64,000 nt of DNA from Amphiscolops sp. MND2022 (Eukaryota). Position 1 is the first letter of the stretch. Each line of letters begins with the position of its first letter. A model generated the notes under the pieces. The model was not told where the DNA came from, searched no databases, and saw only the letters and a list, made by a program, of their open reading frames with translations. The position numbers and the translations under genes were made by a program. Shown here in pieces: positions 5,372 through 47,951 of the stretch. The stretch covers positions 29,638,001 through 29,702,000 of the forward strand of contig OZ076409.1 in assembly GCA_964187785.1 (NCBI GenBank), in the 5' to 3' direction.

Positions 5372-6907
5372 TAGAAGTTTTTTTGGTCCTCTACGTCATC
5401 GTGTCGTTCCATTTCCTCAATATTGTTAATTTCGTCGTTGGTAGTGTGGGACAGCTCGTTGGTATTGTAGATAGCCCTGTATTGTAGACAGCCCTGTTGT
5501 TGGTCTGTCGAAAAGCCCTTCTGAACTGTTTGTTTTCTTCCGTTGACTGTTTAGGATACGGGACGTTTTGGTGGGCTGATGCGGTCGTATTTCTGTGATA
5601 ACAGTCTCGGGCTGAGTGTCCCACCTTGCCACAAAATTGACAAACGAGTTTTGAGATGTATTTAGAACTGTTTTCTTGGGCCTGGTTCGATTGGGTTGTC
5701 TGTTGTTGTTTCTGGTTTGTGGGTTTTGCCTGTGCTTCTTATCAGAGGCGTTTCTTACACTCCGCCTTTTTGTGCCCATGTATGACGCAGTGACGGCTTT
5801 GTCCATCCAACTTTCTCTTTGTTTCCCTGTTATGTTTGTGGATTGGGTATTTGACGTCTGAGGTGTGGCTGCATTTGGTTGGGGTGCACTCATTTGGTTG
5901 AATGGTTGCGCACCGACTGTGTTTGGGAGGAGTTGTGCATATTGACATCTACGTTGCACAAATGTCCGAATCTCTTCCATCGTGGTGTCATGTTTGCCCG
6001 ACATTGCCAGTTCGTTTTGCTTTTGAACGGGAAGTTTCGCGAAAAAAAATGTCTCTGTTATGTCGCTGGATTTGTCTCGAAATGCTTGTTTCGCTTCTTT
6101 TGAAAATTTGTTGAGGTAGTCGTTAAATGTCTCGGTCGAGGGATCATAGCGCATTTGGTCAATTTTGTATTTGGCCACTTCTTTCAGGTCCTCTTTGGCG
6201 CACTCTATTTTGAAGTAACGCAAGACTTGTGTTAGGGTCGTCTGATTCGTTATCTTCAATGACTGCAAAAATTCAATGGCAACATCGCGTAGCAGGCTTT
6301 GAAATTATGTCAGTTTCTGTTCTTCTGATAAGTTGTGTTGGTGTGGCCTGACATGGTTGAGCAGAAGGTGCTCAAATTCATTGTATTTTCCCCAATTTCC
6401 TCGGAAAAGTGGGACTTGCGTTTGTAGTATTTTCGGATGTTGTACTGTATCCGTCTTGGTATCCCTCAGGTGGTGGATTTCGGAGACGATGTTGTCAATT
6501 TGGTAGGCGGATGACTGAGGGTATTGCGATGTGGGTGGGCGCAATAGGTTCGTCTGCGGGCTGCTGGTTGATGCTCCTGTCACCATGTCGGAGCTGGTCT
6601 CATGTCCAATTGACACCTTGTTTAGTTCGTTCACTTCTCTATTGCTAGAGGAAATCTTTGCTGTTAGTACTAAAACTAAGTTCGTCAGTTCGGTAATTTG
6701 TTTGTTCATCTCGGAGAACCTTTGATTTACTGTACGTCGTTTAATCTCATTTCGATTATCTAGTAAGTCTCCATTATCAAATTCGTTCATCTGTTCTCTT
6801 GTTAGAACATCAGGCACACTGTCTTTGCTCTCTGCATAACTGTAACTATCTGTTCCGTTCATACTTGTTGGGTTATATTTAATTGCCTGAGATCTAGTAT
6901 TAACCAT
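5372..6907 (-). pseudogene. gag: gag of element B (premature stop and frameshifts)
   Basis: ORFs 6305-6907, 5426-6268 and 5391-5624 are homologous to element C gag, with zinc-knuckle remnants. Confidence 0.88.
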
Positions 6908-7908
6908 AAATTAAAACTACTGGAGTTTTATGAGGTTTTATTGGGTTATTGTAATAAATGGGTTCTGGTATTGGTATGATGAGGCTAGTTGTATACGAAT
7001 AAGATTGTGGTTAGCAACCGCACGTTATAACCGCAAATTCTACTGGTGGCACTCTCGTACCTGCTATTGAGTATGTCGATGTCGGACCACATCGGCGTGA
7101 CCACATCGACCAATCGCATTGCAGTATTATGGTGGTGTTAATTTGCACCTCGATTAGTAATTGCCCAATTTGAGTTTAAACTTGATACTGCACGGAAATA
7201 TAATGTGATGGTGTTACTATAGTTACATGACTCACTAATTGGTATATTCGTTTAGTATTGCAATGTGGCAATGTTGCCAACATCGTATGAGCAAATTATT
7301 AATATAGGCGTTGGTAACGAAGTTAACTGCATTAGAATGAAATCTGGTGATGGTTTGTCACCCACATTACGTGCTTAATCATATAATGTATCATATATAA
7401 TGTATCATGAAATTGATTTAAAAGGTACATGTAGAAAATGTATGATTATGGCTGAAAGAGAGAAAAGCTATTTGAAACCTAAATATAAATGATGCATCTG
7501 AAAGATTTGAGATTAAGTTTGATGATGTGGTTTGGTTAACTACAATCTTTTTCCTTCGTCTGTGCTCATGTACTGTTTGTTGATTTTATGTCTCGACTCT
7601 TGAATGTTGTGTAGTTAACCACTTCTCTGTTCAACATTCTCATGCATCAGGCATGACACAAGATAATATATTTCTCTTCTTTACTATCTATCAACTGATG
7701 TATATGTTTGTAACGTCAGGCAGTCGGTGAACGCAATTTTTGAAAATTTGGAACAAGTTATGCTCAACCTGGCAGGTACTTCCAATCAGTCTGGAAGACG
7801 TTAAAAAAGACAGACACCCCACCCCATCCCCGATAGCGAGAAAGAGTGCAGAAAAACCCCAAAAAAGGAACTCTAGACGTCGTCCGTGACAGAGTGCCGA
7901 AGAAGAAC

Positions 7909-8242
7909 ATCCCGTTGAAAGAATTCCCCCAGAAGAATGCGGAAAAACCGAAAAGTAGACGTCCAACATGTATACCGGTTATGCCCAAAACACGAAATTC
8001 GCTGAATTTTGATCCACAGTGCTATGTTTATAGTTATTTTATGTTGCGTGTGCAGATTTTCAGAGGTGAGATGGCTTTTGACCTAGTAGGTCTCAATTTT
8101 AGATCTTATTCCGCAAATACAATGTACTTTACCTGTTTTTGGACCTGATGTATGTAAGAAGGGTGTGCACATACCGATTGTATGTAGGAAGTCGCAGGAA
8201 TCTTAGGGAACGTTTTTACGTGCTTGTGGGACGTGTCCGGAC
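7909..8242 (+). repeat. Direct repeat, copy 2 (matches 1741-2072)
   Basis: Direct sequence comparison. Confidence 0.9.
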
Positions 8243-11158
8243 TTTGAGTGTGCCGGCATGTCGCCGCGGAGCTCTAAAATGAGTCTCATCGACACTAGAA
8301 AAGTCCCCCCAGGAGACTTTTAGGGATCAAAAACTAGTGTTTAGTGTTGTAGTAAGACAACGGTCTCCTGTTTAAGCAACCTGAGCGCTGTCCCAGTTCT
8401 AGGATGTACGCTACTAGCTTGACGTTACAGTTCATAGAACAAAAGAGGCTTTGTATTCAAACTAAAAATATCAGAAATTGAGTAGGTTTGCTGACAATTT
8501 TCAATTATTTTCCCGTGACTTGGAACATCCGCCATCAGTTTGGTTCCAAGTCGACTTTAACAAAACACCTAAACCTTGATGGTTTTGACATCATGTGCAT
8601 CAAGAAATTTACAGAAAAAAAATATACATAATCAATGACAGAATGCTCACAGAAATCGCTGAAAAATGGGGAAAATCACTGGAAAGTGCTTACTAAAATT
8701 GATAGAAATATGAGTTTTAGTCGAGACATTGACTCTTAACAATATAAAATGTGTCGTCTTGAAAATCTTTCATCTCATTATTGCCGTGATGACGTAAGCA
8801 ATTGCTTTTGGGGAGAGGGATATTTCTGGTCTATCCATACAGTTTCGAGGCATGCCTTGCCACTTAGGGGTATATTGAATTATAGATGACAACTGTTTCT
8901 GTGTTCCCTGAAAAATTGTCCCCGACTATTGCAATAAAGACTTGAGCAGAATTCAATATGATTTAGTGCCAAACGCCAGCATGGAAGAAAAGGAAGTATT
9001 ATATAGCAGACGCTTTTGATTGAGTTCTATAAAGACACATTGTGTGAGCGAAATTAAAAATTAATTGATACCTAAAACTCGAATAGGGAAATGAAAAAGC
9101 ACCGTCAGCCTTTAAAAATAGATCTCCATCAAATATCAAAGTTTAGCGTTTGTATTTTACTACAGCACCGTAGTAGCATAATGCCATTGAAACATCCCTG
9201 AACTTGGAAAGAAGAAAGCAGCCAAATGGAAAAGTCCATTCAAGACCATTGTGAGATGACTTCTGGAGCGGGGGATCTGCGGCCGCGATAATTTTGCATT
9301 CCTTTGTTTCTTCGACGAGTGCTCATTAAAGATTACGTAATGAAATCCTTTCTTATACCGAGTAATTGCAAATGCGTGTCGCTTGGTTGTTGTCTTGCTT
9401 CTGTCACACCTTCTGGCTTTGTGAAAACAATTTTCTCATTTCGCTCCCCGAGTTCCCACCGTTCGTATCAATCATCAGATGGAAATTTTAAAATTGGCTC
9501 CCCTCTCCCCATCTCATAATGTTTTGCGTAACGTTTTGGTAAAAATTTCATTTCCATTCTCTAACAATCTCATTAGACGAGTTTCTGCATTCTTTACTCC
9601 CCGTTAAGCTGTGCAATTCAAAATTGAAGTTAATCACTTTAAAAGAAATATTCCATTATACATATTGTGCTTTGAAATGAAAAGCGAAGAAAAGACTTTT
9701 TACTCTGATTTTCAATCCTATTGACGGTTAGTTTCTTTCAAATGTTTTAAAGATTTTAAATCTGTTCAAACAATTGTTTCTTTTGTGCTTGAGCCATTTT
9801 CTCATTTTTTGTACTTAAACTTATTTCCGCTTCCATTTACTCCCAATTTGGATGCATATATAAATCTATTCCCAACTTTTAAAGAAAGCTTTAAAAACCA
9901 TCTTCTTATGGGTAAATTTCAAGTCGGTTTTTCACGTAAGTTTTCAGTCATTTTTTTACTCATAGCAAAATGTCATATTTTTGCTTGTTTCTTTTGTTTC
10001 CGCACAAAACAGCTCAGTGTCTCATTCCACTAACTTGAGCAGTTCAAAACCGAAGTATAATTTCATGTTAGCCAAGTAATTCGACAATTTTCATCTGGAA
10101 GTTTTTCGGCATCGCGATATTTTATTGGCTTTCGCAGCCTATTATGATGATAATGCTTGTGCGGAACAGCATTGCGGAACAGCAATGGCTGCCTAAAGTG
10201 ATCTTACTGGCTGCTTCAGTCGATTCCACTTAAAATTCTTTTGAAAATTCGTTTTGACATGTATAACTGTTGAGACTTTTTGAGGTTGTTCTAATGTAAT
10301 TTATCACAGAGGTTCTTGCTGGGAACGTTTCTTTACATCCCTCGTTGAGACTGCTGGAACTTTTTCCATGCTGCAGGCCTGCATGCAGGGTAATTTTTTA
10401 TAAAACCTAGAAAATTCAGTAAGCTTCCGGTGGTAAATCTTGTAGAATTACACTGCATTTTCCACTACTGCAATTAAATTTGAAAATATCTCACACTTCT
10501 TTTACGGACACGATCACGTTGTATTCACACATTGATTTCTCAAATACTCATCTGATTTAACCACCGCGTCTCAAATAGGACGCTGAAGATGACGCTAGTT
10601 TGCTGTTTACATTGTGAATGAAGTTAATTTGCATTAAAATGGCGGCAAAATTGGTGACGTCTCAGCTGCATTCAAAATTAGAACTGATGCATATTGAAAC
10701 CTTCAAAACTTCAAGGCTTAAAATTCCCGCCAAAACTTTGATGATTCGTTAAAGCAGCTTAATAAAAGTTGGCGACAACAGGGAAATATCAACGCATTAA
10801 AGTTTCCGTAAGATATTTAGAAAATCATAATAAAAGTTGATGGCAACATTAAAGTACATGTAAAAAGTTCAAGCATGTTCAACAAGGGATGCTCATCATG
10901 TGTTAGTGGATTCCACCTTTTATTCTTTTTTGCACCCGAATAATGACTTAAGGCCTTATTCCACCAGAGCAATGATTTTAGATTTTAGGCGACCAAAAGG
11001 CAGTGATTCAATGCTTATTTTCCAGTATTTGTCAGCCAAAAAAACACGTTTCGACAATGACAAAATAATGAGGCCATTTTGAAGACGAAAAAAGCAATAA
11101 AGTGTGTCTAAAACGGTCAGCAAAGTGTATTGCTTGATTATGGTTCGTGGTATGTTGT

Positions 11159-12249: not shown

Positions 12250-12302
12250 TTTATTTTTTAATTAGACATTAAAACCGAAAGAGAGATGCAACGCTAGAGA
12301 AC
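12250..12302 (+). repeat. 53-bp target duplication, left copy (identical to 24634-24686)
   Basis: tttattttttaattagacattaaaaccgaaagagagatgcaacgctagagaac abuts both ends of element C. Confidence 0.95.
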
Positions 12303-14557
12303 AAATATTATGTCTTATGTACTTAGATATGGGCAATATGATGTCATATAATAAGGGCCATGGTTGTGAGCAACCCTACGTTACTTGTACCTTAATCCCC
12401 ATCCACCTTGAGTTTGAGCTATATATATATATATTTACTTAATACTGAGCGCTCTAGTTCCGGTGTCCGCATTCATGATCTTGCTATTAGCCTTAAATGT
12501 GTTACATTTCATAAATATTGGTTTGTCACGACAAGGGAGAGAAGTTTTCCGGTCAGACTGGACCGAGAGATGTAGAAACAATGAAAGCTGTAACTCCTAC
12601 TAGCTCCCCGCCTCAGGGCTTGTAGTCGTGACGAATTTCAGAAAAGTTCATCACTAATCCATCAGCGGACTTAGTGACCTTTCAGCTTGATTTACCAGTG
12701 AAATTACAGTGCTATTTTACCAAAGTTCATCGCAATCACATCGCCAAGATTGCGGGTGAACAAAAATTGGGACATTTATTTGATTTTATTTAATGATCCA
12801 TCAGCGGATCTCACGGGACTTTAAAATGCATGAAAACCATCCCATACTCATCGCCGTTTTGTGATTATTAACCTTCAATGTGCTTCTCATTTCCTAAAAG
12901 AGCATAACACATCTATATTTCATCGTCCTGACTAGTAACAATAAGAAATGAGAAAGTACATCCTTAATTCATCCTTAAAAAGAGTGAAGTAATGGATATC
13001 TGTTTTATTAGACTAATTCATCACTAGTTCATCGTAAAATTAGCTCGCACTACATTTGGCAGATTTATTACACAAGTTCATCACTAATTCATCGCTAGCT
13101 CAACTTGCGCTAGAATTAGTTGAATTTTCAGTTGAGTTCATCCTAAACTCATCATTGGAATTTGAACCATTAGATTTAGCTGTTTTATTGAATGTATTCA
13201 TCCTAAACTCATCGTACGTTTGTCTTCACTGTAGAATTAGCTGTTTCACCTGTTTTATCGACTGAATTCATCCTGAATTCATCGTCAATTTCACTAGTGC
13301 TGGAATTTAGCTATTTTCGAGGAGAGTTCATCCTTTTACCATCGTCGATTTAAATCGTGCTGGAAATCGTTCATTTTGAAGAGAGTTCATCCTTTTATCA
13401 TCGTCATTTTAAATAGTGTTGATTTTCGAGCGAGAAAGACTACGTTTCATCGCATATTCATCCCAGAGCTAAACAAGACTTGAAAATCAACAAATAAGGT
13501 CATGATTCATCACATATTCATCTTTGGTTTTATATGCATCGATTTACTGTCGTTTCTAGTTGGAAATCATCGTTTCTCCCATCCTGTGATATAATGTAAC
13601 TTGATCCAGTCTGAAATTAGTGTGATATCGATTACTTTTGATGCATTTTCGTTACTATAACAACCATTGTGTTATGTGCAGGCAATTGCGACATCTTGTA
13701 AACTAATGACTAATTATCATTTGCATATGTAGATTCATCATGGTGCTAGGCCATCTTGCGGCAGTTCACAACACCGGTCACGTGGCTTACCATCTTAGCA
13801 CCAACTACGGTAGCCAATGAGAAGAGGCTGGTAAGAGATTAGCGTCTTACCAGCCTGAAAAGACACGTGAACTGCTGTAATTAGGGCCGCCATTAGTAAT
13901 TACTCAGACCGAAATTGCGACAAGCTACCATCCAGTAGGATACCTCGCGTCGAATTTTACTCGAAAATACATCTCAGCTTCATCTTCAGAAACTATAATA
14001 CTGAAAACTGAGTAATTTCTTTTGATGCACTTACTGCTGCGATGAACATTGGATGAACTTTCCTATTCACCTTGCTAATTTCCTACTACCTTCCTTACGA
14101 CTTGCTTATTTATACTAATCATCGATAAAACATCTCTGTTCAAATTTAGTAAATTAGAGATTATAAAATCAAATAGAACAGCAAAAATACATCGCAATAA
14201 CATCTCAGATAATCCAGTCTTCACTCATAATCCTTTTCCCTCGTCTTTATGAATCCAGAACAAGGTACTGAACTCAGAAGTGGTAAAATTATTAGTTCCT
14301 CGTCTGAAACATCTATTCCAACTGATCCAGACATGGCCCAGTCGTCTGCCAATGACTCCGATAGCAACGAAACTTCAGATATCTCGTCTCAGTTGTCTGA
14401 AATAAGAGAAAGTTACGAAAGGAAAATAAACGAGTTACAAAATGAGTTTAGTCAACTGAAGGACTTAATGATGGCTGTTATAAGTAAGACAGACTGTGAA
14501 AATCGGCCATCAACTTCGAAAGGTCCTTCAAAGCCGGCCCACACAGTGGGTCCGACA
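12303..14557 (+). repeat. 5' LTR of element C (lacks the first 48 bp of the 3' LTR)
   Basis: Aligns to 22380-24633 with few differences; ends CCGACA. Confidence 0.96.
12647..13583 (+). repeat. Degenerate array of about 16 units (about 60 bp) with conserved core TTCATC-N5-TTCATC, in the 5' LTR
   Basis: Core starts at 12647, 12726, 12786, 12836, 12908, 12957, 13017, 13077, 13137, 13197, 13267, 13327, 13386, 13446, 13506 and 13566. Confidence 0.9.
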
Positions 14558-14570
14558 TGGTGACAGGAGT
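14558..14570 (+). promoter_or_regulatory. Primer binding site (probably tRNA-Leu)
   Basis: TGGTGACAGGAGT directly after the LTR-terminal CA; conserved in elements A, B and E; resembles the complement of tRNA-Leu 3' ends. Confidence 0.8.
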
Positions 14571-15746
14571 TACAGAAACCCGCTCCACCCGCCCGACAAC
14601 CAGCTTCACCAACTTCAGAAGATACCAAGAAGACGACTCAGACGAAGAGGGAGAATCAACCCCCAGAAGCAATGAGGAACGACTACTCAATGCAATCGAG
14701 ACGATCCCCCAACGGATCAAAAACACCACCACCAACACGAAGCTTCTGCAGACACACGTGCCAAATTTCAGAGGCCAAAAAGACAAATTCGTCGAATTTG
14801 AACACCTTCTCCTCAACCACCTCAGCCCGCTTGCCAACAAAATCACCGAGGAGAACAAACTACACTTCTTTCAAAGCCTTTTGAGAGATGACGCAATAGA
14901 ATACTGGCAATCCATCCAGATAACGCCAATGACAACACTAAAGGACGTACTCGACCTCTTCAGAAAAGAATTTGCAAAAGAGGATCTCAAGGAAGTGGCG
15001 CGTTACAAGTGGGACCAAGCACGTTATGATCCCACAACAGAAACATTCGGAGATTTCCTCAAAAATCTCAAGAAGACTGCCAAACAAGCCTTCGGCAATG
15101 AGGCCGACAAAGTAATCAAAATGTTCTTGTTTGGAAAACTACCAGTCGAGATTCAACAAGAGCTCACTATGGCAAACAAAGAAGAGAGCTCCCCAGAGGA
15201 AATCAAGACATACTTGATGAGAAAGTACCAGTACCAGCAGTACGTCGCGCCACCTACGGCAATCCAACCATTTAACGCGGTCACCTCCTCAGCCCCAGCA
15301 ACGATTACAACGACGAAGCCCACAACAACAACGACGACAACGCATCCCACGGAAAGAAAACGATTCGAAGGACAATGTTTCTACTGCGGAAAGACAGGCC
15401 ACCGCAAAACAGAATGTCGCGCCCGCCAACGTGACGAAGCAAACGGCATCAAAAAGGAAAATGCAATTCCGATGAAGAAAGTAACCGACCCAGACAAACC
15501 GAAGTACAATCCCAAGCTGGTTTGTCAAATTTGTGGATACACCGGCCACTCTGCAAGAGACTGCAGACGACGCATTCCCAAGGAAAGCAGCTCTGCATAT
15601 GGAAAGATTCCATACACAACGAATTCACAGGACGACAACAAGGCTAGACGACAAGATTCAAAACGACAACAAAAGCCGATGAATCCTATGCAAGCAGTTG
15701 CCGAAGAAGAAGACCAAGAAAGCTACTCTGATGAAGACATAAATCA

Positions 15747-15753
15747 GGGTTTT
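15747..15753 (+). promoter_or_regulatory. -1 ribosomal frameshift slippery heptamer G GGT TTT
   Basis: X XXY YYZ in the gag phase just before the gag stop; pol lies in the -1 frame. Confidence 0.85.
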
Positions 15754-18700
15754 TGATTCCGCCACGATTTCCGCCCGCTACCAACGACACGCGCGACAAA
15801 CGACTTACGACTCAACAACAGACTCACAACCGTCCAATGAAGAAATGGCAGCCTTCACTGGACAAACGACCAAAAGCTGACGACGTCTATCAGCGAAGAC
15901 TTTCCAATGATGAAAAAGCGATGGGAAATGCACGTCAACTCAACGGCAGCCGCTTTTCTCCACTCGCTGAAATCAACGATGAACAAACGATGAACTGGCA
16001 ACAAAACACCATGAGGCAGGTGGAAGATGCCAAAGAGATGGAAACCCACCATCTTGACGACGACTCGACTTCACACTCCACAATCGACAAACGGCTTAGT
16101 ATTAAAAAACATGCAAAACAGAGTAGTATTAACGTTTCAAAAACTAAAAAACATGCAACTAAAACAGAAATTCACGTTCTCAGTCCCACTTTACACTTAA
16201 ACAAGAAAGATAAAATGCTTTACGTCCCTCTTCAGTTTGACAAATATGAAAACAGCGCACTTTTAGATACAGGCGCAATTCAAAGCGCAATGTCTGAAGC
16301 GGAATTGCGAAAAATAACAACGGCTCATCCAGAAGCCATCCTTCATGAACTCCCCCCTCCGAATTTCAAAATTCAAATAGCAAACGGGAATTTAGTCCCA
16401 GTACGTAAGCAAGTCTTACTTAGATTTTACGTTGCTGGAAAAGTCTTTGAAGAAACGTTCCTAATCCTTCCAACAATGGGCACAATTTTAATTGGAATGT
16501 CATTCTTTGAAAAGTACTCAGTCAATTTAGACATAAAAAACCACCTTGTCCACTTCCCTAATCACATGATGTCCATGCAAGTTAGACAGCAAAAGAACAA
16601 CAGATTCAAAACTGGTTTAATTGATTTGTGTTCCAGCACCAGAACAGTGATCCCTCCTCTCCATCAAGTGATGATACAGGTCCACAGTGACGCGGACATC
16701 TCACTTACAACTGGTACAGTTGAGGGCTCACCTGGATTCATGCGAAAGACGTGTTTGCTTGTTTCTCCAGCTTTGGTTGACCTAGACGAGGGCAAGACGA
16801 CAATCCAGGTCACCAACCCGAACAACCACACGTTCACACTTGATGCCAACACCACTCTGGCACACTTTCGCATACCGACACCACATCAGGCGGCAAACAT
16901 CACCCCCATGCCAGTCGAACACTTGAACCTGATCACCAAGTACCCAGATGAGGCGGAAGCAGTGATCAACCAACTGTTCGTGAACCCTGAAATGAAGTCA
17001 ACTAAGTGGTACCCAACTCCCGAGACGTGCAGTGAGCCAGACAAACTCAACGCAATTGAGCGACGAATCTATGATGAGATTCTGGCACTACGAGAGCTCG
17101 AGAAGCTTGACCCGTCCCAATCTGATGAACAACGGATGAACTTCCTGAAGAACTTCAACTGGGACGACTCGCATCTTACTCCGTCTCAACGGTTACAGGT
17201 AGAGGAGTTGCTGGTAAAGTACAACTCCATTTTTGCTAGACACCGTTTTGATATTGGCATGAACACTGATTTTAAAGTTAAGTTAACACCTCAACATGAA
17301 GAACCTGTTTATTCACAAAGTCTCCCGACTCCGACAAATTTGAAGGACGATTTGCTCGTGGAGTTAGCTTTAATGCAAGAGTACGGGATCATAACTACTT
17401 TGCCTCATAGCAAATACTCTTCCCCGATATTTGCCCAACGTAAACCTAATGGTAAATTGAGGATTTTAGTTGACTTGAGAAGAATAAACCATCTGATCAA
17501 AAACGATTACGGTGAACACAACCATCCCGTAACAACAATTGCTGACGCTGCCCAACACATGACCGGGAAAAAGTATTTCTGTAAACTTGATTGTTCCCAG
17601 GCCTACCATTGCATTCCAATGGCCGATGAGCAGTCTGTCCAACTGTTATCATTTAATTTTGGTTCTAGAACTTTTGCCTTTTTACGCCTAGCCCAAAGTC
17701 TTAACCGTTCTTTGTCAGCATTCACAAGTGTAGTCCGTGAGTATTTGGACCCCTTGGTCAAAGCGGACCGATGTGCTCAATATGTTGATGACATTGGAAT
17801 TGCAGCACACACCCCTGACGAACTGATTAATAACCTTGAACTTGTTTTTCAGCAGTTGAACAAAGCTGGTCTCAAACTTAGCATGAGTAAATGTGAATTT
17901 GGACAAAAACAAATTGAGTACTTGGGAAAAACCATTTCTAGCACCGGTATTGCTCCCATTGAGAAACGAGTAACTGACTATCTAACCAAGTTGAAACCCC
18001 CCAATTCAGTGAAAGCGTTGCAACGTTATCTTGGTTTTGTAAACTTTTACAGGTCTTATATTCCCCGACTAGCTGATAAAACTTGTTGTTTACAGGAATT
18101 GATCAAGAAGGACGTCCCTTTCAAACTGAATCAACAACATAAAGACGCTATTTTTGAAATCAATGAAAGTTTGTTAAGAGCAACAAAAGTGTCTCTGAAA
18201 TTGCCATTACCTGATAAACAATTGGTAATCATGTGTGACGCCAGCGAACACGCTGCCGGCTATGTTTTGTTAATTGAGGATTATGCTGACCCGTCAGTCA
18301 AACAAACATACGCCCCTGTTGCATTTGGCTCTAAAAAATTTCAGGGCGGCCAGATGTCTCTAACAATGTATGCCAAAGAGTTTTTAGCTATGCACTTTGC
18401 CTTCGATGAATTTGGCCACATTTTGTGGGGTGCGAAAAAACCCATCATTGTTATGACTGACAATAAGGCCTTGACTAGATTTTTCCAGGCGAAGCATATC
18501 CCGCCTTCACTTTGGAATTTTTGCGATCAAACCCTTCAGTTCAATTTTTTATTAGCACATGTTCCAGGAGTTGAAAATCCCGCAGCTGACTACTTATCTC
18601 GGCTTGAGATTAGACCTGAAGACCGTGTACATTTAAAATTGACTGATACTATTCCAATTCACAGGATCGAGATCGACATCGCCTCCCGTACACCAAAACA

Positions 18701-19604
18701 GGAGGAAGACGAGCCTGATTACTTTCCCACGAGCGAACCACTCAGATGCAAACGCCAGAAGGATGTCAAAGAGATGAAATTGGCAAATGGCACTGACGTG
18801 GCTCATGACGATGGGAAAGGGATGAAGTTCACCAACTGTGAGAGAACAGCGACCTCAGATGACTTCGCGACTGACAACCATCTGACGTACCGCCTCACAG
18901 ACGTGGACGAGCCGATTCAACTCTCGCAATTCATCCGTAAAGTATCATTATCACACCCGGTAATGAGTCAGGTTAGCCCCGCCGAGGGGATCGATCTAAT
19001 TCAGGTCCAGAAAAATAACTGGGTTATTCAAAAAATGATTAGATTTTTAGAAGGTACTGAAATTTTGCAACACCCAGTTATAATGCAAGATCAGTTTTTT
19101 CAAAAGTTGTACAAAAATCGAAAACGCCTACAAGTTGTAAACGGTGTCTTGTACAGACAGTTTTTTGATCACACGGGACTAGAGTCTCACAAGCAGTTAG
19201 TCGTTCCTGAAGACTGTATTTTGAAAATAATTAGGACTCTACATAACAGCCCGGTACAAGGACACCCTGGTTTAAAGAAAATGTTGTACGAACTTCGTAA
19301 AAGATATTACTCTCCTAACTTAGCCTGTAAAGTTCAAAAAGTCCTTGACGGATGTGAAAACTGCATGAAATCTAAAAGTGTAAAAGAAACGCAACTACGT
19401 CCACCGTTACAAAAAATCTACGACCCGTGCGACGGACCAGAAGACCTGTTAGAAATAGACATCGTTGGTCCACTCCCGGCGTCGAACGGTTTTACACACA
19501 TTCTGATAGCTAGAATGAAAGACAAAAGAGAAAACGCCATATTTAGGACTTTTGACGATGAGAAAATGATGAAAAGAGAAAAACCGCAGAAAACTAAAAA
19601 ATGA
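15753..19604 (+). CDS. pol: Pol polyprotein (aspartic protease, RT, RNase H, integrase N-terminus; IN catalytic core lost after about 19510)
   Basis: LLDTGA, YVDD, MCDASE, HNSPVQGHPG...CENC, EIDIVGPLP, then an unrelated Lys-rich tail. Confidence 0.95.
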   Translation: MIPPRFPPATNDTRDKRLTTQQQTHNRPMKKWQPSLDKRPKADDVYQRRLSNDEKAMGNARQLNGSRFSPLAEINDEQTMNWQQNTMRQVEDAKEMETHHLDDDSTSHSTIDKRLSIKKHAKQSSINVSKTKKHATKTEIHVLSPTLHLNKKDKMLYVPLQFDKYENSALLDTGAIQSAMSEAELRKITTAHPEAILHELPPPNFKIQIANGNLVPVRKQVLLRFYVAGKVFEETFLILPTMGTILIGMSFFEKYSVNLDIKNHLVHFPNHMMSMQVRQQKNNRFKTGLIDLCSSTRTVIPPLHQVMIQVHSDADISLTTGTVEGSPGFMRKTCLLVSPALVDLDEGKTTIQVTNPNNHTFTLDANTTLAHFRIPTPHQAANITPMPVEHLNLITKYPDEAEAVINQLFVNPEMKSTKWYPTPETCSEPDKLNAIERRIYDEILALRELEKLDPSQSDEQRMNFLKNFNWDDSHLTPSQRLQVEELLVKYNSIFARHRFDIGMNTDFKVKLTPQHEEPVYSQSLPTPTNLKDDLLVELALMQEYGIITTLPHSKYSSPIFAQRKPNGKLRILVDLRRINHLIKNDYGEHNHPVTTIADAAQHMTGKKYFCKLDCSQAYHCIPMADEQSVQLLSFNFGSRTFAFLRLAQSLNRSLSAFTSVVREYLDPLVKADRCAQYVDDIGIAAHTPDELINNLELVFQQLNKAGLKLSMSKCEFGQKQIEYLGKTISSTGIAPIEKRVTDYLTKLKPPNSVKALQRYLGFVNFYRSYIPRLADKTCCLQELIKKDVPFKLNQQHKDAIFEINESLLRATKVSLKLPLPDKQLVIMCDASEHAAGYVLLIEDYADPSVKQTYAPVAFGSKKFQGGQMSLTMYAKEFLAMHFAFDEFGHILWGAKKPIIVMTDNKALTRFFQAKHIPPSLWNFCDQTLQFNFLLAHVPGVENPAADYLSRLEIRPEDRVHLKLTDTIPIHRIEIDIASRTPKQEEDEPDYFPTSEPLRCKRQKDVKEMKLANGTDVAHDDGKGMKFTNCERTATSDDFATDNHLTYRLTDVDEPIQLSQFIRKVSLSHPVMSQVSPAEGIDLIQVQKNNWVIQKMIRFLEGTEILQHPVIMQDQFFQKLYKNRKRLQVVNGVLYRQFFDHTGLESHKQLVVPEDCILKIIRTLHNSPVQGHPGLKKMLYELRKRYYSPNLACKVQKVLDGCENCMKSKSVKETQLRPPLQKIYDPCDGPEDLLEIDIVGPLPASNGFTHILIARMKDKRENAIFRTFDDEKMMKREKPQKTKK

Positions 19605-19692
19605 AAACAAAAAACGACGGCAAATAGATAAAAAAGGAGAAAAGCGCGAAAATGCTAGTGGAAGCGGAAATGAAAAAGGTAAAAACGGAAAG

Positions 19693-21188
19693 TTACTGAT
19701 CAAATACTTCACAGGTTTTAAAGCTGTTTAGGTAACCTGGTAGACGAGACGCGATTGGCTCATCATCGGAGTCAATGAGGCTGGGCCCCAACGGTGAGGT
19801 CTCTCCTAATCCAATGTCTGGTGCAGGAACAACGTCGCCAGGATCAGGACCAACAGACGGAAAACCACTGAAGGAGAAGTCCTCGGGAATCTCAACCCCT
19901 GTCATAGTGCCACTGGCCGAAGGAAGATCGGGCTGGTCAACGACTGGCTCCACCATCGAAAGGACGTCAGCGGTCAACGAGGAAGCAAAGGGAGGAGACT
20001 CGACAGGAGGATCGTGCACGGTGGAGGAATCAATGGTCTCCACAACAGCCTGCACTGCTACGTCAGCAGAATTGCACACTGTATTGATGGCCACATCCAC
20101 TTGCTGCACCTCATCCCTCGTTGAGGTACCATGGCACACAGTCACCCGAGGAGGAGGACTTCTGGCAGCGAATTCACCATCCAAGTATCTCTGTAAGTTG
20201 GGCGACAACACGGAGACTGGAGCCCTTGCGACCGGAGAACTGGCGGCATTCACTGCGAGATCCTGTAAGAAGGAAGACAGCTCAAGCTGAGGAGGCCCTC
20301 CTTGGGTACTGACGTCGACGCTGTCATTGCCGAAGTCACTGGTCCCAATCGCAATGGAGTAAGTGATGGGACGCGGTCTCGGTGCGTGAATTGGCGTTGG
20401 GCCTGAAAGAAGAAAACAGAAATCAGACGACGACGAACGGAGAAGAAAGAGCGCGTACGTCGCGCGAAGAAAGAAGTCTGGAGCAGAATTTACCCATGAC
20501 CCATCTTCAAAAAATGAAATTCGCAGCGAGTCAATCAGAAAAGGCTGCGAATGTTCATGACACATCCTAAATTCATCTTAAAAATGAATTACATGGGTAA
20601 TCGACCGCAAAGGACACTACATGCAGATGCGATGTTTACATCGGAATCACATCGGAGTGTTCGGACGATCGCCTAGAGGAATGAAAAAGGAAATTGACAA
20701 ACTCACTGAACTGCTGGATGCTGTCCCGCAGCATGTCCCACATGTGGCGGTCATACCACCCGAAGGTGATGCTGCCGAGAGAGGCATACCAAGGGTAGTG
20801 ATCTGAAACACCGTACGAAAAGGAGTCAGCTACTGGACGAAGTGAGGATGAGATATGAGGAATTCGAAGACTGAACTGAAGAGTGGAAGGATAGTACTTA
20901 CACTGCGGCAGATACGGGACATTGACAGGTTGACCGACCTGCAACTCAGGGTCAACCTGCGGCTCAGCGGCTACCGGCTGAACAACAGGAACTTCTTGGG
21001 GTGGCACAGTTTGCAGTGTCGTGAGTTCTGACACGATGCCGACAGAGTGGACTGAGTCAGCTAAAGCAAGGGTGCGTCCTAAGTAATTGATTGTCCCTAA
21101 CCCCTTTGTGAAGAAAAGAAAAAATAGTGCACTTACTTTCTGTGGCCTCGGTCTCAGGTAACGAATGAACTGAATGAATATCAGACAT
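19693..21188 (-). CDS. Predicted spliced antisense accessory protein, 448 aa; exons 21188-21137, 21060-20640, 20566-19693
   Basis: GT-AG introns 21136-21061 (GTAAGT...CTTTAG, 76 nt) and 20639-20567 (GTAAAC...ATTTAG, 73 nt) join an ATG exon and two track ORFs in frame (52+421+874=1347 nt). Confidence 0.75.
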
Positions 21189-21689
21189 CTCGCACTCGAA
21201 GAAGAAATTGCAGCAACAATCTGAAAAGAATGGAAGAAGGTGAAAGAAGGAAAGAAATCGAAGAATCCAGGAACAGAGAATTTGATCAGTAATTAAATGG
21301 CCTGATCAACCATGATTACGGAAGAACAAATTCAATAGAAGATTTCAAAGAGCGCGACGCAGCTTGAATGCCATGGTAATCAAATACTTGAATTCAGAAG
21401 ATGAAAAATCGATGAAAAACTCTCCGATTTCAAATACTGACACCACTCTTCTTCCCAGTACAGCCAACTCAAGCTTTCTCTGAAAATGGATCGTCCTCTC
21501 CTAGGACTTGACAAAAAACTTCAAGTATTTGATTTGTTGACAGCTGCCAGTCTCAGATCAATACCGACGAAGTTGAGCGGAAACGCGCAAAGGAAATCGT
21601 GGCGATTTTCAAACCGACTTGAATGGAGGATGATTTATGGATGAGAATGCTGCTGACAACCGGTTGTAACTTCCTTCAGTTATAAATTC

Positions 21690-21830
21690 AGTCTCAGCCA
21701 ATCAGATCGAGCAACAGTTGCTATGACGACGAATTCATCTCTTTCTCATCGCTCAGAAGTCGAGCAGCGGAAGTAGCTTCGACGGTTACTATGGCAACGA
21801 CTCATTCCTTTCTCATCACGGAAGCTGATA
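21690..21830 (-). promoter_or_regulatory. Candidate promoter/enhancer of the antisense gene: CCAAT, two RFX X-box-like sites, CGGAAG
   Basis: CCAAT at 21698; GTTGCTATGACGAC 21717-21730; GTTACTATGGCAAC 21785-21798; the two sites lie in a diverged duplication of about 68 bp. Confidence 0.45.
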
Positions 21831-22331
21831 GCAAAGCAACGGCACCAGTCGTCTGCTAAATCAACATCGATGTCTCGCTGTGTAAACAATTCATCGTTCA
21901 TTCATCCCCGACTCGTTGCCAATTTGTCCATAAAGCTAATCGAATTGTTTATTCAGTGTAGGCGTTTTGGAGAGAAACTTTTCTCCGAGAAATCAGTTTC
22001 TACCGAAAATACCCAGCCGAAACTCCCATCAAAAGCATGACAACCAATAAAATGCAGATCAGCGGACATTCGATGGACCAAGAATTAGAGTTGCCGCGTC
22101 GAAAATTTTAACCGAAATCACCCAGGATGATGCCAGAAAAGACGATTACCGAAGGTCCTCTTCTCAGAGAAGCTCTCACAGGACAGAACAAACGAAGGAC
22201 ATGCCAATTCAGAACTAACGAAGGACATTTTCTCCCCAACCAAACGAAGGACCAGTCGAAGCCAACGCCGAGACAACCATCCTCTGCACATTTGGCCCCT
22301 GCACTCTCAGTCCAAATCCCGCCCCGGGGAG

Positions 22332-24633
22332 TGTCATGCCAGCATGATGGAAATATAATCTACTAAATATCTGTAATGTAAATATTATGTCTTATGTACT
22401 TAGATATGGGCAATATGATGTCATATAACAAGGGCCATGGTTGTGAGCAACCCTACGTTACTTGTACCTTAATCCCCATCCCCCTTGAGTTTGAGCTATA
22501 TATATATATTTACTTAATATTGAGCGCTCTAGTTCCGGTGTCCGCATTCATGATCTTGCTATTAGCCTTAAATGTGTTACATTTCATAAATATTGGTTTG
22601 TCACGACAAGGGAGAGAAGTTTTCCGGTCAGACTGGACCGAGAGATGTAGAAACAATGAAAGCTGTAACTCCTACTAGCTCCCCGCCTCAGGGCTTGTAG
22701 TCGTGACGAATTTCAGAAAAGTTCATCACTAATCCATCAGCGGACTTAGTGACCTTTCAGCTTGATTTACCAGTGAAATTACAGTGCTATTTTACCAAAG
22801 TTCATCGCAATCACATCGCCAAGATTGCGGGTGAACAAAAATTGGGACATTTATTTGATTTTATTTAATGATCCATCAGCGGATCTCACGGGACTTTAAA
22901 ATGCATGAAAACCATCCCATACTCTTCGCCGTTTTGTGATTATTAACCTTCAATGTGCTTCTCATTTCCTAAAAGAGCATAACACATCTATATTTCATCG
23001 TCCTGACTAGTAACAATAAGAAATGAGAAAGTACATCCTTAATTCATCCTAAAAAAGAGTGAAGTGCTGGATATCTGTTTTATTAGACTAATTCATCACT
23101 AGTTCATCGTAAAATTAGCTCGCACTACATTTGGCAGATTTATTACACAAGTTCATCACTAATTCATCGCTAGCTCAACTTGCGCTAGAATTAGTTGAAT
23201 TTTCAGTTGAGTTCATCCTAAACTCATCATTGGAATTTGAACCATTAGATTTAGCTGTTTTATTGAATGTATTCATCCTAAACTCATCGTACGTTTGTCT
23301 TCACTGTAGAATTAGCTGTTTCACCTGTTTTATCGACTGAATTCATCCTGAATTCATCGTCAATTTCACTAGTGCTGGAATTTAGCTATTTTCGAGGAGA
23401 GTTCATCCTTTTACCATCGTCGATTTAAATCGTGCTGGAAATCGTTCATTTTGAAGAGAGTTCATCCTTTTATCATCGTCATTTTAAATAGTGTTGATTT
23501 TCGAGCGAGAAAGACTACATTTCATCGCAAATTCATCCCACAGCTAAACAAGACTTGAAAATCAACAAATAAGGTCATGATTCATCACATATTCATCTTT
23601 GGTTTTATATGCATCGATTTACTGTCGTTTCTAGTTGGAAATCATCGTTTCTCCCATCCTGTGATATAATATAACTTGATCCAGTCTGAAATTAGTGTGA
23701 TATCGATTACTTTTGATGCATTTTCGTTACTATAACAACCATTGTGTTATGTGCAGGCAATTGCGACATCTTGTAAACTAATGACTAATTATCATTTGCA
23801 TATGTAGATTCATCATGGTGCTAGGCCATCTTGCGGCAGTTCACAACACCGGTCACGTGGCTTACCATCTTAGCACCAACTACGGTAGCCAATGAGAAGA
23901 GGCTGGTAAGAGATTAGCGTCTTACCAGCCTGAAAAGACACGTGAACTGCTGTAATTAGGGCCGCCATTAGTAATTACTCAGACCGAAATTGCGACAAGC
24001 TACCATCCAGTAGGATACCTCGCGTCGAATTTTACTCGAAAATACATCTCAGCTTCATCTTCAGAAACTATAATACTGAAAACTGAGTAATTTCTTTTGA
24101 TGCACTTACTGCTGCGATGAACATTGGATGAACTTTCCTATTCACCTTGCTAATTTCCTACTACCTTCCTTACGACTTGCTTATTTATACTAATCATCGA
24201 TAAAACATCTCTGTTCAAATTTAGTAAATTAGAGATTATAAAATCAAATAGAACAGCAAAAATACATCGCAATAACATCTCAGATAATCCAGTCTTCACT
24301 CATAATCCTTTTCCCTCGTCTATATGAATCCAGAACAAGGTACTGAACTCAGAAGTGGTAAATTTATTAGTTCCTCGTCTGAAACATCTATTCCAACTGA
24401 TCCAGACATGGCCCAGTCGTCTGCCAATGACTCCGATAGCAACGAAACTTCAGATATCTCGTCTCAGTTGTCTGAAATAAGAGAAAGTTACGAAAGGAAA
24501 ATAAACGAGTTACAAAATGAGTTTAGTCAACTGAAGGACTTAATGATGGCTGTTATAAGTAAGACAGACAGTGAAAATCGGCCATCAACTTCGAAAGGTC
24601 CTTCAAAGCCGGCCCACACAGTAGGGTCCGACA
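22332..24633 (+). repeat. 3' LTR of element C (2302 bp, TGTC...GACA)
   Basis: Starts TGTCATGCC like the LTRs of A, B and E; contains a copy of the motif array and the Gag N-terminal ORF 24324-24656. Confidence 0.96.
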
Positions 24634-24686
24634 TTTATTTTTTAATTAGACATTAAAACCGAAAGAGAGATGCAACGCTAGAGAAC
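24634..24686 (+). repeat. 53-bp target duplication, right copy
   Basis: Identical to 12250-12302. Confidence 0.95.
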
Positions 24687-28014: not shown

Positions 28015-30446
28015 AAAATTTCTTTGAGTATTTTAACATCTGACTGACAGTACGACACAGGTTCTTGTTGAAAGTCGTAAACGAACTTATTAACTTTATA
28101 AAGCTGGGTCTGTGCTGAGTGCCATTCCAAAAACGTGCTCACCGTTTGCTGTCCTCTCATCGAATTCAAAGCAAAAAGGCACGCGGGTGGAAATTGGCCT
28201 TCTTTGAGAGCAAACTCTTGGCATTCTTCTCTTGGTCATTTCCTGCATTGAAGCAGCTAACATTGCTTTGTGTAGCTACACAGTGATTGCAGTCGTTGGA
28301 AACAATCTTGCGCGGATTGCAGTTTTCCCCTTTCTCGCATGTTTGTAAACTATGCAGCTTTGAAGTAGCGGCGGGATAGAGGGCCTCTTTAGATGTCAAA
28401 AAATGAGGAAAGTATCCTTTTTTCAATTCTTTGAGATTGAACGTTGTGGGAAATTTTGATAAAGGTTTCGGCATGAAAAGATAAGAGTCAATGAATCGTT
28501 TATTCCCCACACGCATTGACACAACCTTGTTACCTCTGAGCAAAATTTTGGGAACATATTTGTGTTGTTTGTAGAGCCATTCCAGGATTGGTAGGAAATC
28601 GAACCCACTGCCAAAATGGGCAATAAACCATTCAGTTTGACGAACCTTTTCAACACTAGCAAAAACATCCTCACAAAAATCGTTTATACAATCGTAGCCA
28701 CAGTAAATAACTTCATCACCTGTCCAAGACTCTGCTGCCAGTAGAATTGGTTTATGTAGCCCTTCATTGCCACAACTCTGGTCAGTTTCTAAGTCAAAAA
28801 CCCAAATTTTGTCATCCGAGGGAGCTCGTGCAAAGTTGTTTGCTGGCTGGTCACGGGATGTAACAGTACCATCGTCATTGACTGGAGCGTTGCTCATTTT
28901 CCTGCGTTTGATTTGCGTCATCGGATCTTCTTTCTCAACTTCTTCACGATAATTCTCTCCGCCCAATAATTCACAGTCAGGAAATTCGTTACTGGTATCA
29001 CCATCCGGTTTTTCTCGCTCTATACATCTCTTCGGTTTTCGTACAAAACATTGATGTTCCGATGAAGGCGAAGAGGTGTTTTTACGGTGTGACAATGAGT
29101 AATGAACGGAGCATGTAGAACAGCGTTTTTTTGAGCAAATTTGATTGGAGAATGCTCGCTTAGGTACAGCATTGTCGCATGTAGGGCACAAAGTGTACAA
29201 ATGACACACCCCAGAGGTAACATGGCAATCCAGACACTTTTGGCTTCGTACCTTTAGCCTGCATCTATCACACTGGAAAACCGGTGACTGGCGAGGGGTC
29301 TTTGACAAGTCATTGGACGAAGTAGTTCAATTGAGCAGCGAAAGGTTGATGAAACCGGTCCTATTGAGACAGCCAGGCTGCCGACACAGCAAACAACCAC
29401 TGACAGAGCATAAATGCTTCACTGTGGAAAAGGCCTTGTGACAACTGTAACAGTAGTGGCAAGCATCGAATAGTCCTTTCATTGAGGTAACTAAATCTAC
29501 ATGTCTGTTTTGAGCATCATACAAAAGGTCGATATTCTGCTGTGCTTACTGATTATAACATTTAAGGAAAGTGCCCATAAAGTTGCTATCGTAAACAGAT
29601 AAACAAAAGTCTTTCAACACTTGCGACTGAGACAAAAATGCTAAATCTTGTAGAGCAAGAGGTTTACCAGCAGCAGGAGAGGTTTGAGCTGTCTGATAGT
29701 GATGCAACCCAGTAGAGGAGTCGTCAAAGGCAGAGGTGGGAAGTCTTTTCGAGGAAGCACCACAAGCCAAAATTGTCTGCAATTCGTCTTGGGGGATGCT
29801 TGGATCAGATTTCAGAAGGGTTATCAAATGCTGCATTTCACGCGTTTGCACGGAAGCCCGATCCAGGTGCAAGTTTTTTTTGTCGTTTTTCTTTTATTAG
29901 GCGGCCGGGGAGATCGCTCCTTAACTTTGATGCCAATTGCTATGGCCCGCAAAAGACAATCGTTCTGGTCACTTTTGATTACAATTATTGACTTCTTTTG
30001 TTTCGTGAAGAGCTTGATATCGGGAACAGTCCTGCTCTGTATGCCTCCAAGCCGGTTCCCGCCCATTGTTGGTAGAGAAACACTCAAAACGTTGACTTTG
30101 ATATTGTTGCTAATATCAAATGACTCGTTGGAATTAACGACCCTGTCAATTTCATCGAGAATCAGTTCGGCGTTGAAATCCGCTACGGACGAGAATGGGA
30201 TATGAATAGGATAGTTGAGGGTAGGCGCATTCAGTACCAATCGAATTCTGTGTGAATGACCAGGAAGATCTTGCTGTATCTCAGATATCAATTTGTTGAT
30301 GAGGTGGTTGAAAATCTCTTTAATTCGATCCAGCACACTTTCAATGTCCGTGAAGTACACTTCATAGTCTCTGCTGGCCGCTCGCAACAGACTCTGCTTT
30401 GTGACATTCGATTTACCCTATAGTACTGCTCAGGATTAAACCCCAT
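28015..30446 (-). pseudogene. Protein-primed family B DNA polymerase, N-terminal and exonuclease part; frameshifted and truncated
   Basis: VFDLET (ExoI), FIAHFGSGFD (ExoII), RFIDSYLFMP..LSKFP.TF.L..KGYFPHF, YCQSDVKIL (ExoIII, near 28040); upstream KKSIIVI...CLLRAI and Cys-rich segments. Confidence 0.88.
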
Positions 30447-30811: not shown

Positions 30812-31528
30812 TTAGTTCATGAAAACTTCATCCTCATCATCCTCAGTGGTGGCTATGTTCGTACCAGTCTCACCGTTGAACATAACAAAATCTCGTTTCT
30901 CAAACAATTTCTGGTTTTCAACGTCGGCCTCGATTGTTATGTTCTCATTGTCGCCATTGGTCAAACAGTCGTCCGTGACATTTTGGGCCCGCTTCTTCGA
31001 TGTGGTTGTGGTTGACCCGACTTTCGCGCCATTAACCTTGGAAAAACCTTTCTTGCCAGTAGGCTTCTTTCCAAAAGTTGAGATTGACGTAGGTTCTCGG
31101 AACCCACCCGTCAGAGCTTCCTCCATCGCTCTCTTGAACTCCTGCGTCGTCGCAGATTTCACCCCTGATGATTCCAATGCCGCCTTGTCACCTAGACCAA
31201 GCAAAGCAACAAACGCAGTCAGCTCTTCAACAGTGAACGAAAAGTGACACTGCCGCTGCAACTGGCCGCTTTGAAAATCGGGTTTGAATAGTCGCAGCCC
31301 GATGTAAGTCGCGGTTGACATCTCCGAAGAGAGGTTGTTTGGGTAGCACTTCACTCCGATTCTAACCCAGCGATTATGCGACTTGGCAATGTCCCACCAT
31401 TTGTCGTGGCTGGACTCGTCTTGCTCCCGTGAGATTCGCCAGGGGGACACAACAGATTTTGCATCGTTTCCAACAATACCCAGAGTCTTCTGGGAGCGCT
31501 TACGTACAACACTGTTCAACCAATTCAT
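30812..31528 (-). CDS. Hypothetical 238-aa protein, possibly PC4/Whirly-like ssDNA binder with acidic tail
   Basis: Intact ORF; beta-rich WDIAK..RWVRIGV...YIGLRLF...FSFTVEEL pattern; C-terminus EDDEDEVF; upstream splice-acceptor and TATA-like signals. Confidence 0.55.
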   Translation of the reverse strand: MNWLNSVVRKRSQKTLGIVGNDAKSVVSPWRISREQDESSHDKWWDIAKSHNRWVRIGVKCYPNNLSSEMSTATYIGLRLFKPDFQSGQLQRQCHFSFTVEELTAFVALLGLGDKAALESSGVKSATTQEFKRAMEEALTGGFREPTSISTFGKKPTGKKGFSKVNGAKVGSTTTTSKKRAQNVTDDCLTNGDNENITIEADVENQKLFEKRDFVMFNGETGTNIATTEDDEDEVFMN

Positions 31529-31953
31529 CTTTTTTCGTCAAAACAACGAGACTCTGAAACGGAAAGAGTACTGTGAATCTGAACTCTCAAGAATGTAGTA
31601 AAACATGTAATCAGCGACTTTAACAAAAAAAACTGAACTGTGATTTGAAGGGAGAAAACGTTTTGAGACGCAACGAATACATATATAGTTTGCTGCGTTT
31701 CAGACAGGATGGGAGAATCAATTTCAAGACTCCAACTGTTTTATGTCTTCTGCCAAAAAACTTCTAGACTGTATAGGTGGCAAAATCCAAAAAAACAGTA
31801 CCGATTACAAACATTTTATTGATGAAGACTGATTCTTTCTCACTCCTTGAAAACAATACATTGAATTTTAAGCACTTTTAGGACAATTCAACGCTTCAAA
31901 AAACATGTTACAACAAGAAAGAACTGCTATCCAGCGCAACGTTTAATTACAAT

Positions 31954-33115: not shown

Positions 33116-33315
33116 NNNNNNNNNNNNNNNNNNNNNNNNNNNNNNNNNNNNNNNNNNNNNNNNNNNNNNNNNNNNNNNNNNNNNNNNNNNNNNNNNNNNN
33201 NNNNNNNNNNNNNNNNNNNNNNNNNNNNNNNNNNNNNNNNNNNNNNNNNNNNNNNNNNNNNNNNNNNNNNNNNNNNNNNNNNNNNNNNNNNNNNNNNNNN
33301 NNNNNNNNNNNNNNN
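33116..33315. other. Assembly gap (200 N)
   Basis: Run of N. Confidence 1.
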
Positions 33316-33776: not shown

Positions 33777-33911
33777 CCACCGGAAGATATCCGGACTCAA
33801 AGCTTGGCTTTGTGCTCCTTTTTTTTCTTGCCTGATGTAACCCCCTAAATACTGTCCGCGCCGAAATGAGTACTGAATTAATTCTGGAAAGGGCGGGTCC
33901 AGTAAATTATT

Positions 33912-34078
33912 TCAGGGTGCCGCAAAAGGAGTGCGGCAAAAGGAGCTTGATCACTTTTTTCGTTTTCGGGACGCTTTCGGTCACTTTTTTCGGTCACTTT
34001 TTCTGAGACGCTTTTGTCACTTTTTTCGTCACTCTTTTGCCAGACTCCTTTTGCCGGACTCCTTTTGCGGCAGGGTGA
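33912..34078. mobile_element. MITE-like element with TIRs
   Basis: tgccgcaaaaggagtgcggcaaaaggag / ctccttttgccggactccttttgcggca. Confidence 0.7.
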
Positions 34079-35879: not shown

Positions 35880-35913
<34 letters not shown>

Positions 35914-47950: not shown

Positions 47951-47951
47951 T

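Follow-up and report, generated by a model that had tools for sequence, protein, structure and literature searches.

A Ty3/Gypsy element of 12.3 kb (~12303 to 24634), located in the 64,000-nucleotide stretch of Amphiscolops sp. MND2022 DNA analysed here (the window), bears a short spaced motif, CATC-N7-CATC. The motif is very probably a selected DNA site for a protein (probability about 0.8), which is predicted to bind it as double-stranded DNA. In the LTR, the site has been preserved while its surroundings drifted; over the element as a whole, it is enriched on both strands, and it is written into the codons of pol. Exact sites number 18 in the 5' LTR, 14 in the internal region and 17 in the 3' LTR. 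They represent 49 of the 50 exact sites in the window, the other 51.6 kb holding a single one.

The element and its surroundings

The window is eukaryotic, repeat-rich DNA and consists mostly of Gypsy-type elements. The element hosting the array in its 5' LTR (Table 1) has two LTRs, a primer-binding site and a purine tract. Its gag is followed by pol with the domain order protease, RT, RNase H, integrase, the latter present only as the zinc finger and the start of the core. The two LTRs are 99.2% identical over 2257 nt (12303-14558 aligned with 22380-24634). Pol is broken off in the integrase core near 19510, and the contig of another copy diverges from 19506 on. Instead of the intact ends and the target duplication of 4-6 bp of Ty3/Gypsy elements, a 53-bp flanking repeat and a shortened 5' LTR were found, which are properties of this copy. 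The repeat is possibly an unusually long target duplication resulting from one-ended or repair-assisted integration, or the product of later rearrangement or an assembly artefact. CpG is barely depleted (o/e 0.87), and no tRNA gene was found.

Should the TATA-like run ahead of the array serve as promoter, the array would sit in the transcribed R/U5 leader. A pyrimidine tract and an AG near 14257 (region 14250-14558) hint that it may lie within a leader intron. The apparent start of gag inside the LTR and the junction sequence are common to neighbouring Gypsy elements. A weak dUTPase-like match (16620-16870; E 0.07, below the family cut-off) is located between protease and RT.

Elsewhere in the window, pieces of a protein-primed-type DNA polymerase B (28166-30417, minus strand; PF03175, E 1e-7) probably represent a decayed Polinton/Maverick. 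They are followed by two unannotated ORFs at 30812-33060. An N gap (33116-33315) adjoins a low-complexity zone (33900-36400), in which short tandem repeats and a GCT run occur together with two long inverted repeats (34196-34358 and 36132-36348). A 3.75 kb tandem duplication with 98.6% identity lies within a Gypsy element at 44200-51712. The LTRs 551-2076 and 6587-8245 (-) have ~340 nt in common at 93% identity and are patchily alike beyond, which suggests a recombinant LTR.

Table 1. Features of the element and of its predicted antisense gene (positions in the window)
Feature	Position	Strand	Remarks
Direct repeat flanking the element, 53 bp	12250..12302	+	Second copy at 24634-24686
5' LTR	12303..14558	+	18 exact CATC-N7-CATC sites (17 on +, 1 on -); lacks ~48 nt of the 3'-LTR start
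TATA-like run	12420..12435	+	Upstream of the array; candidate promoter
Main array	12647..13582	+	16 units, 14 exact cores, 60-bp basic unit
Four further cores	13970 (+), 14041 (-), 14120 (+), 14190 (+)		Within 13970..14204; 71, 79 and 70 nt apart
gag	14500..15756	+	Two zinc knuckles; first part inside the LTR, frame broken near the LTR end; zero motif sites
Primer-binding-site-like junction	14559..14570	+	Identical at three neighbouring Gypsy LTR ends
pol	15735..19510	+	Protease, RT, RNase H, integrase zinc finger; 7 motif sites
Motif sites in pol	15909, 15978, 16026, 17124, 18762, 18810	-	
Motif site in pol	16326	+	
Surviving site of the putative second array, in intron 4	19557..19571	-	
Predicted exon 4, 666 nt	19737..20402	-	Disordered, S/P/V/D-rich; conservation bounded by splice sites
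Predicted intron 3	20403..20706	-	Motif sites at 20563 and 20639 (both CATC on +)
Predicted exon 3, 126 or 123 nt	20707..20832	-	Start 20832 or 20829; W/Y-rich, best conserved
Predicted exon 2, 159 nt	20902..21060	-	
Predicted first coding exon, 52 coding nt from ATG	21137..21188	-	Sequence model
Putative antisense promoter	21400..21906		CCAAT-like 21702, TATA-like 21685; presumed role
Motif sites bracketing the putative antisense promoter	21400, 21629 (-); 21736, 21892 (+)		Two on each side
3' LTR	22332..24634	+	2303 bp, preceded by purine tract; 17 exact sites

The motif and its array in the LTR

The first-pass annotation had described a row of conserved 17-bp cores. All 15 core-to-core distances given there (79, 60, 50, 72, 49, 60, 60, 60, 60, 70, 60, 59, 60, 60 and 60) were reproduced, as were the four sites further downstream. 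The conservation of the core held up as well, whereas its length did not, only the eight letters of CATC-N7-CATC being invariant. Two of the 16 array cores are inexact: the one at 12788 retains its second half only, and the one at 13568 has a gap of 8 nt. One core of the 3' LTR has lost its exactness through an LTR-LTR difference. A leading TT is present in 12 of the 18 exact sites of the 5' LTR. More generally, a T is preferred before each half, the gap is A/T-rich, and a T is preferred two positions after. Hence, the unit can be described as a direct repeat of (T)TCATC with a period of 11 bp.

Against the 18 sites of the 5' LTR, 300 order-3 Markov simulations gave 1.0 site on average and 6 at most, and with any gap from 0 to 19 other than 7, this LTR has no more than one site. 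Lone CATC/GATG words show no enrichment (7.5 per kb inside the element and 8.0 outside), which indicates that the selected thing is the pair at gap 7. Autocorrelation of the LTR, proposed earlier as a check, gave peaks at lags 60, 11, 120 and 49. The spacers have diverged with some residual kinship, as had been stated (mean z 1.5 at distance 1 and 0.5 at distance 3; best pair z 6.1). They are closest between neighbours and unrelated at the two ends of the row. This pattern points to a row that arose by tandem duplication and then drifted while the core was held. In 39 contigs from two sequencing runs (depth ~2-3; the runs contained 0.08 of the words), none of the 40 listed substitutions (136 in total) falls in a fixed core letter, and they are too few to count.

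The array makes up 936 bp of the 2303-bp LTR. This LTR had been called twice as long as its relatives; it is indeed longer, but by a factor of 1.4 to 1.9, the neighbouring Gypsy LTRs measuring ~1.2, 1.5 and 1.65 kb (approximate lengths, their starts not being sharply fixed).

Spacing and helical phase

Selection on both the core and its rotational phase had also been proposed. The core is kept while the spacers drift, and the interval lengths are non-random; support for the phase itself is modest. The ten 60-nt intervals are copies of one ancestral unit. The eight LTR intervals other than 60 and 59 have a period of 10.05 (R 0.82, p 0.008) against uniform lengths of 45-85 nt, a generous null, with a period scan of 9.5-11. 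With the 60-nt unit counted once, the ten distinct LTR intervals give a period of 10.1 (R 0.84), matched by 0 of 3000 uniform draws. The six values from the array only give p 0.023. The intervals of 49 and 71, i.e., 60 minus and plus 11, may have arisen by slippage at the 11-bp direct repeat.

The sites lie on one helix face, as first suggested, only if a turn comprises ~10.0-10.1 bp. A turn of 10.5 bp gives a similarly good fit (R 0.79-0.82) with a constant offset of -3.4 bp, and successive sites on free B-DNA would therefore be rotated by a constant angle. The distances between internal neighbours (69, 48, 48, 76 and 107) were discarded as support for phasing, their best period being 7.35 and not 10. 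Overall, the 10-bp phasing is real but modest.

Motif sites within pol

The 14 internal sites, five on the plus and nine on the minus strand, had been missed in the first-pass annotation. They show the same flank preferences as the LTR sites and compare with a mean of 0.5 and a maximum of 4 in 300 Markov simulations. For the seven sites in pol, 20,000 synonymous-codon shuffles gave a mean of 0.66 and a maximum of 4. Six of the pol sites read D-[VADEG]-x-x-M in the protein. All six such peptides use the codons of the motif, at a chance of ~0.075 per peptide under the overall codon use of pol. The peptides themselves are also in excess: six are present against a mean of 0.55, and none of 5,000 residue shuffles reached 6. 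Five of the six lie in linkers outside the Pfam-matched domains (positions 59, 82, 98, 1010 and 1026).

At the aligned position 464, the site is missing from two related neighbouring Gypsy elements, the RT and RNase H segments of which are 58-75% identical in protein. No such D..M peptide and one exact motif were found in 15 ORFs of other elements, and the dyad array is absent from the LTRs of the two neighbours. By these counts, the DNA site has shaped the pol protein, and this is the strongest evidence of selection in this analysis. The enhancer, insulator or nucleosome-positioning row originally put forward is too narrow a description, as it leaves the 14 internal sites (7 in pol) and the clustering around the antisense gene unexplained.

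A predicted antisense gene and its relatives

The region between pol and the 3' LTR holds two minus-strand ORFs with unnamed relatives in public assemblies, namely 12 clusters at 49-97% identity and, for exon 4, 159 clusters, of which the best 120 are listed at 43-93%. Conservation starts and stops at splice-site-like sequences. The predicted exon junctions are all in phase 1, and the three internal exons (159, 126 or 123, and 666 nt) are divisible by three. The kept exons would encode a product of ~334 residues. A short extra exon is possible within intron 3, and the deletion near 19510 would have removed one or more further exons. Exon 3 was modelled as one helix. The model of exon 4 has a mean pLDDT of 45 and is disordered; its end is acidic and conserved, and its repeated short stretches are candidate dynein-light-chain (LC8) binding motifs by resemblance. 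Seven motif sites surround or interrupt the predicted gene, four at the putative promoter, two in intron 3 and one in intron 4, and the predicted coding exons contain none.

The kept exons gave no Pfam domain, no usable atlas match and no remote relatives. A profile search returned 18 proteins, all aligned across these exons, and no remote family with an annotation. No relatives of exon 4 were found in the JGI metagenome and viral collections or, which is weak evidence, among proteins of 514-2000 residues. Within the window, tblastn with the antisense ORFs gave no match elsewhere.

In many relatives, the protein called by gene prediction runs on past the exon into intron 4, so that the motif can be tested indirectly in translations. 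Of the 159 exon-4 clusters, 120 were examined; 20 were without the anchor peptide, and 62 with tails of fewer than 60 residues were dropped, leaving 38 tails. Peptides compatible with CATC-N7-CATC occur in 37 of the 38, a compatibility read at the level of peptide and not of DNA, and at positions that are homologous and not independent. For the other gaps between 1 and 19, the count ranges from 1 to 17 of 38, and for residue shuffles of the tails, the mean is 8.4 and the maximum 15. Counts of this kind can be raised by one conserved peptide, as in the coding-exon control (20/38 at gap 8 and 3/38 at gap 7). With one representative for each of eight subfamilies (exon identity down to 40%), 24 matches stand against a null mean of 2.7 and a maximum of 11 of 2000.

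The matches in the relatives fall in all three frames, ~103, 162, 233 and 303 nt past the exon. Their spacing is 59-60 and then 67-71 nt, with exceptions of 28, 55, 57, 58 and 82. A second array of like steps (~60 then 70 nt) thus seems to be present in the relatives, and one exact site of it is left here. Indel lengths across family copies were followed via proteins only, and hence indirectly. The same motif fits eight subfamilies at one intron, and neighbours of other families are without the array.

Comparison with known systems

VANDAL elements are DNA transposons, and the Su(Hw) sites of the Drosophila gypsy insulator are found in the leader, in about twelve copies. In Arabidopsis, VANC21 binds a short motif amassed by tandem repeats, and VANC motifs differ between related VANDAL families (PMC5735166). 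In the excerpts of that report, binding is demonstrated, the targets are non-coding, two tested coding-region probes were without the motif, and the output is a loss of DNA methylation (PMC5735166). The present element is similar in its element-specific short motif, amassed in tandem at several places, and in its extra element-encoded gene. As far as these excerpts describe VANDAL/VANC, the differences are that the element is an LTR retrotransposon with a spaced direct-repeat motif, sites in pol, helical-step spacing and little CpG depletion, and that its binder is a candidate. Pfam, atlas and remote searches gave no homology of the kept antisense exons to VANC or to a known family. If the best reading holds, the element would work like VANDAL/VANC without being a member.

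Antisense ORFs of the plant elements Retand, Grande and RIRE2 and of the fungal Boty (brtn) are described in the consulted sections as having an unknown function, and a regulatory role is proposed (PMC11963269; PMC7264820). As in those Gypsy elements, a conserved antisense gene lies between pol and the 3' LTR with tandem arrays nearby, and, as in Grande, it would have its own upstream promoter (PMC11963269; PMC7264820, in the same sections). Here too, a family-conserved antisense coding region was found between pol and the 3' LTR. In contrast, the gene predicted here is multi-exon and lacks TRP28 (PF04195) or any other Pfam domain. Furthermore, the motif of its arrays recurs in the LTR and in pol, a feature that the consulted sections do not report for the Retand type (PMC11963269; PMC7264820).

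In Sireviruses, the repeated motifs are palindromic (CGG-CCG); they lie in CpG islands ahead of the TATA box and are ascribed to host stress factors in the part of the report considered here (PMC2829016). The likeness lies in the number of motif copies (8 to 32) and in their clusters, one in the LTR and one next to an accessory gene, within otherwise divergent sequence. Sireviruses are plant Copia elements, whereas the element described here has the Gypsy domain order, and its motif is an A/T-rich direct repeat that lies downstream of the TATA-like run and also in pol (comparison with the same part of PMC2829016). The gypsy insulator likewise has a row of protein-binding sites in the leader region of a Gypsy element; according to the excerpt, it differs in its reader, the host zinc-finger protein Su(Hw), in its consensus (central GCATACTTT) and in forming one cluster only (PMC5416891). 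CERV of C. elegans Cer1 is also a novel regulatory protein made from a spliced mRNA of an animal LTR retrotransposon. It acts, however, in genomic RNA export, and the abstract mentions no DNA motif array (PMC10309623). No description of this motif or family was found in searches of open-access papers.

Who reads the motif

The occurrence of the motif in both orientations, the exact 11-bp period of its half-sites, the helical-step spacing and the lack of RNA structure argue for a protein reading double-stranded DNA. The two head-to-tail (T)TCATC half-sites, 11 bp apart, would be read by a dimer or a two-domain protein. In the rows with steps of 60 and 70 bp, bound proteins may cooperate and so keep the LTR and the antisense promoter open, and the scattered sites may extend a protein coat over gag-pol. 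In its least certain part, the model holds that the binder is the mostly disordered product of the element's own spliced antisense gene. Its DNA-binding part would lie in the downstream exon or exons deleted here and would be supplied in trans by other copies. Such a binder would act like VANC, as a self-made, sequence-specific anti-silencing or activating factor.

This full statement, a selected site with a VANC-like binder encoded by the element itself, falls slightly short of even odds in our judgement, and a self-encoded binder is favoured over a host factor. It is favoured because the sites are confined to the element with the antisense gene, crowd around that gene and extend into pol, as a coat spanning the entire element would require. 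On the other hand, the kept exons show no DNA-binding domain. Moreover, the neighbours are truncated where the antisense gene would lie, and the link between motif and antisense gene hence rests on one element. The CpG o/e makes a VANC-type demethylation unlikely as the output. It suggests little CpG methylation in the host, and the silencing opposed would more likely be based on histones or small RNAs than on DNA methylation.

A host transcription or chromatin factor (e.g., a multi-zinc-finger or homodimeric one of the germ line or stem cells) could read the motif instead. The element would then have amassed enhancer or insulator sites in the manner of the gypsy insulator with Su(Hw) or of the Sirevirus motifs, and the antisense protein would be employed elsewhere, e.g., in RNA export as is CERV. 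All DNA-level evidence fits such a factor equally, and Sirevirus motifs, in the part of the report cited above, likewise cluster in the LTR and beside an accessory gene (PMC2829016). The motif also seems to be the same in subfamilies with as little as 40% identity in exon 4, whereas VANC motifs vary, so that a stable host factor fits at least as well; the missing DNA-binding fold in the kept exons agrees with it too. Enhancer or insulator rows, however, have no need of sites inside pol that cost residue changes, related neighbours in this host lack the sites, and the host consensus words compared do not fit. The nuclear-receptor DR5 consensus is RGKTCA-N5-RGKTCA; none of 32 sites matches it in full, and 10 of 64 half-sites match its half. 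Of the same 64 half-sites, two are CARE-like and 13 POU-like, and all three readings were rejected. We regard a host factor as a tentative second choice.

The remaining explanations dispense with a DNA-binding protein. A motif acting on RNA, as a dispersed packaging, export or splicing signal or through unit RNAs cut from the array, would agree with a probable position of the array in the transcribed leader and with the reading of most sites as CAUC along the nearest predicted transcript. Cer1, too, has an accessory protein for RNA export according to the abstract (PMC10309623). Both orientations are found in every context, however (LTR 17+/1-, internal 5+/9-), the spacing tracks the helical period, the array folds no better than shuffles (z -0.93), and Rfam gave no match at E up to 1 in 12.5 kb. 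An action on RNA is therefore very improbable, and the processing into unit RNAs raised in the first-pass annotation finds no support in the fold or in Rfam. A CRISPR-like or unit-RNA reading was likewise rejected, the spacers being related duplicates without structure. The period of nucleosomal DNA is close to the best period of 10.05-10.1 bp, and a row that positions or excludes nucleosomes through its sequence, independently of any specific protein, would account for this. Bendability signals are far less specific than eight invariant letters with an exact 7-nt gap and isolated occurrences in pol, and we consider this reading very improbable. The least likely is a neutral tandem expansion of a 60-bp unit holding an 11-bp duplication, with slippage producing the lengths near multiples of ten. 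The related neighbouring spacers, the intervals of 49 and 71 and a local duplication seen in the 70-bp unit of the array all agree with it. Neutral expansion cannot, however, fix eight letters while the spacers drift to unrelatedness, nor can it account for the biased codons of pol or for the 14 sites that the internal region bears on its two strands, and it is already contradicted.

Implications

Tentatively, and with the odds leaning against the picture as a whole, the element may belong to a high-copy LTR retrotransposon family with its own antisense-encoded DNA-binding regulator. The site of this regulator, present in the LTR, in introns and in pol codons, would serve to coat every copy and shield it from chromatin silencing, and the system would be VANC-like but of independent origin.

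The means by which LTR retrotransposons evade silencing is an open question, and so is the role of their conserved antisense ORFs, the function of which is called unknown in the sections consulted (PMC7264820; PMC11963269). As this family combines a candidate target sequence with a candidate factor, the question is reduced to a simple test of binding. Were a host protein the binder, selection on the DNA site would still be strong enough to change residues of pol, and the motif would be a ready-made one for finding that factor.
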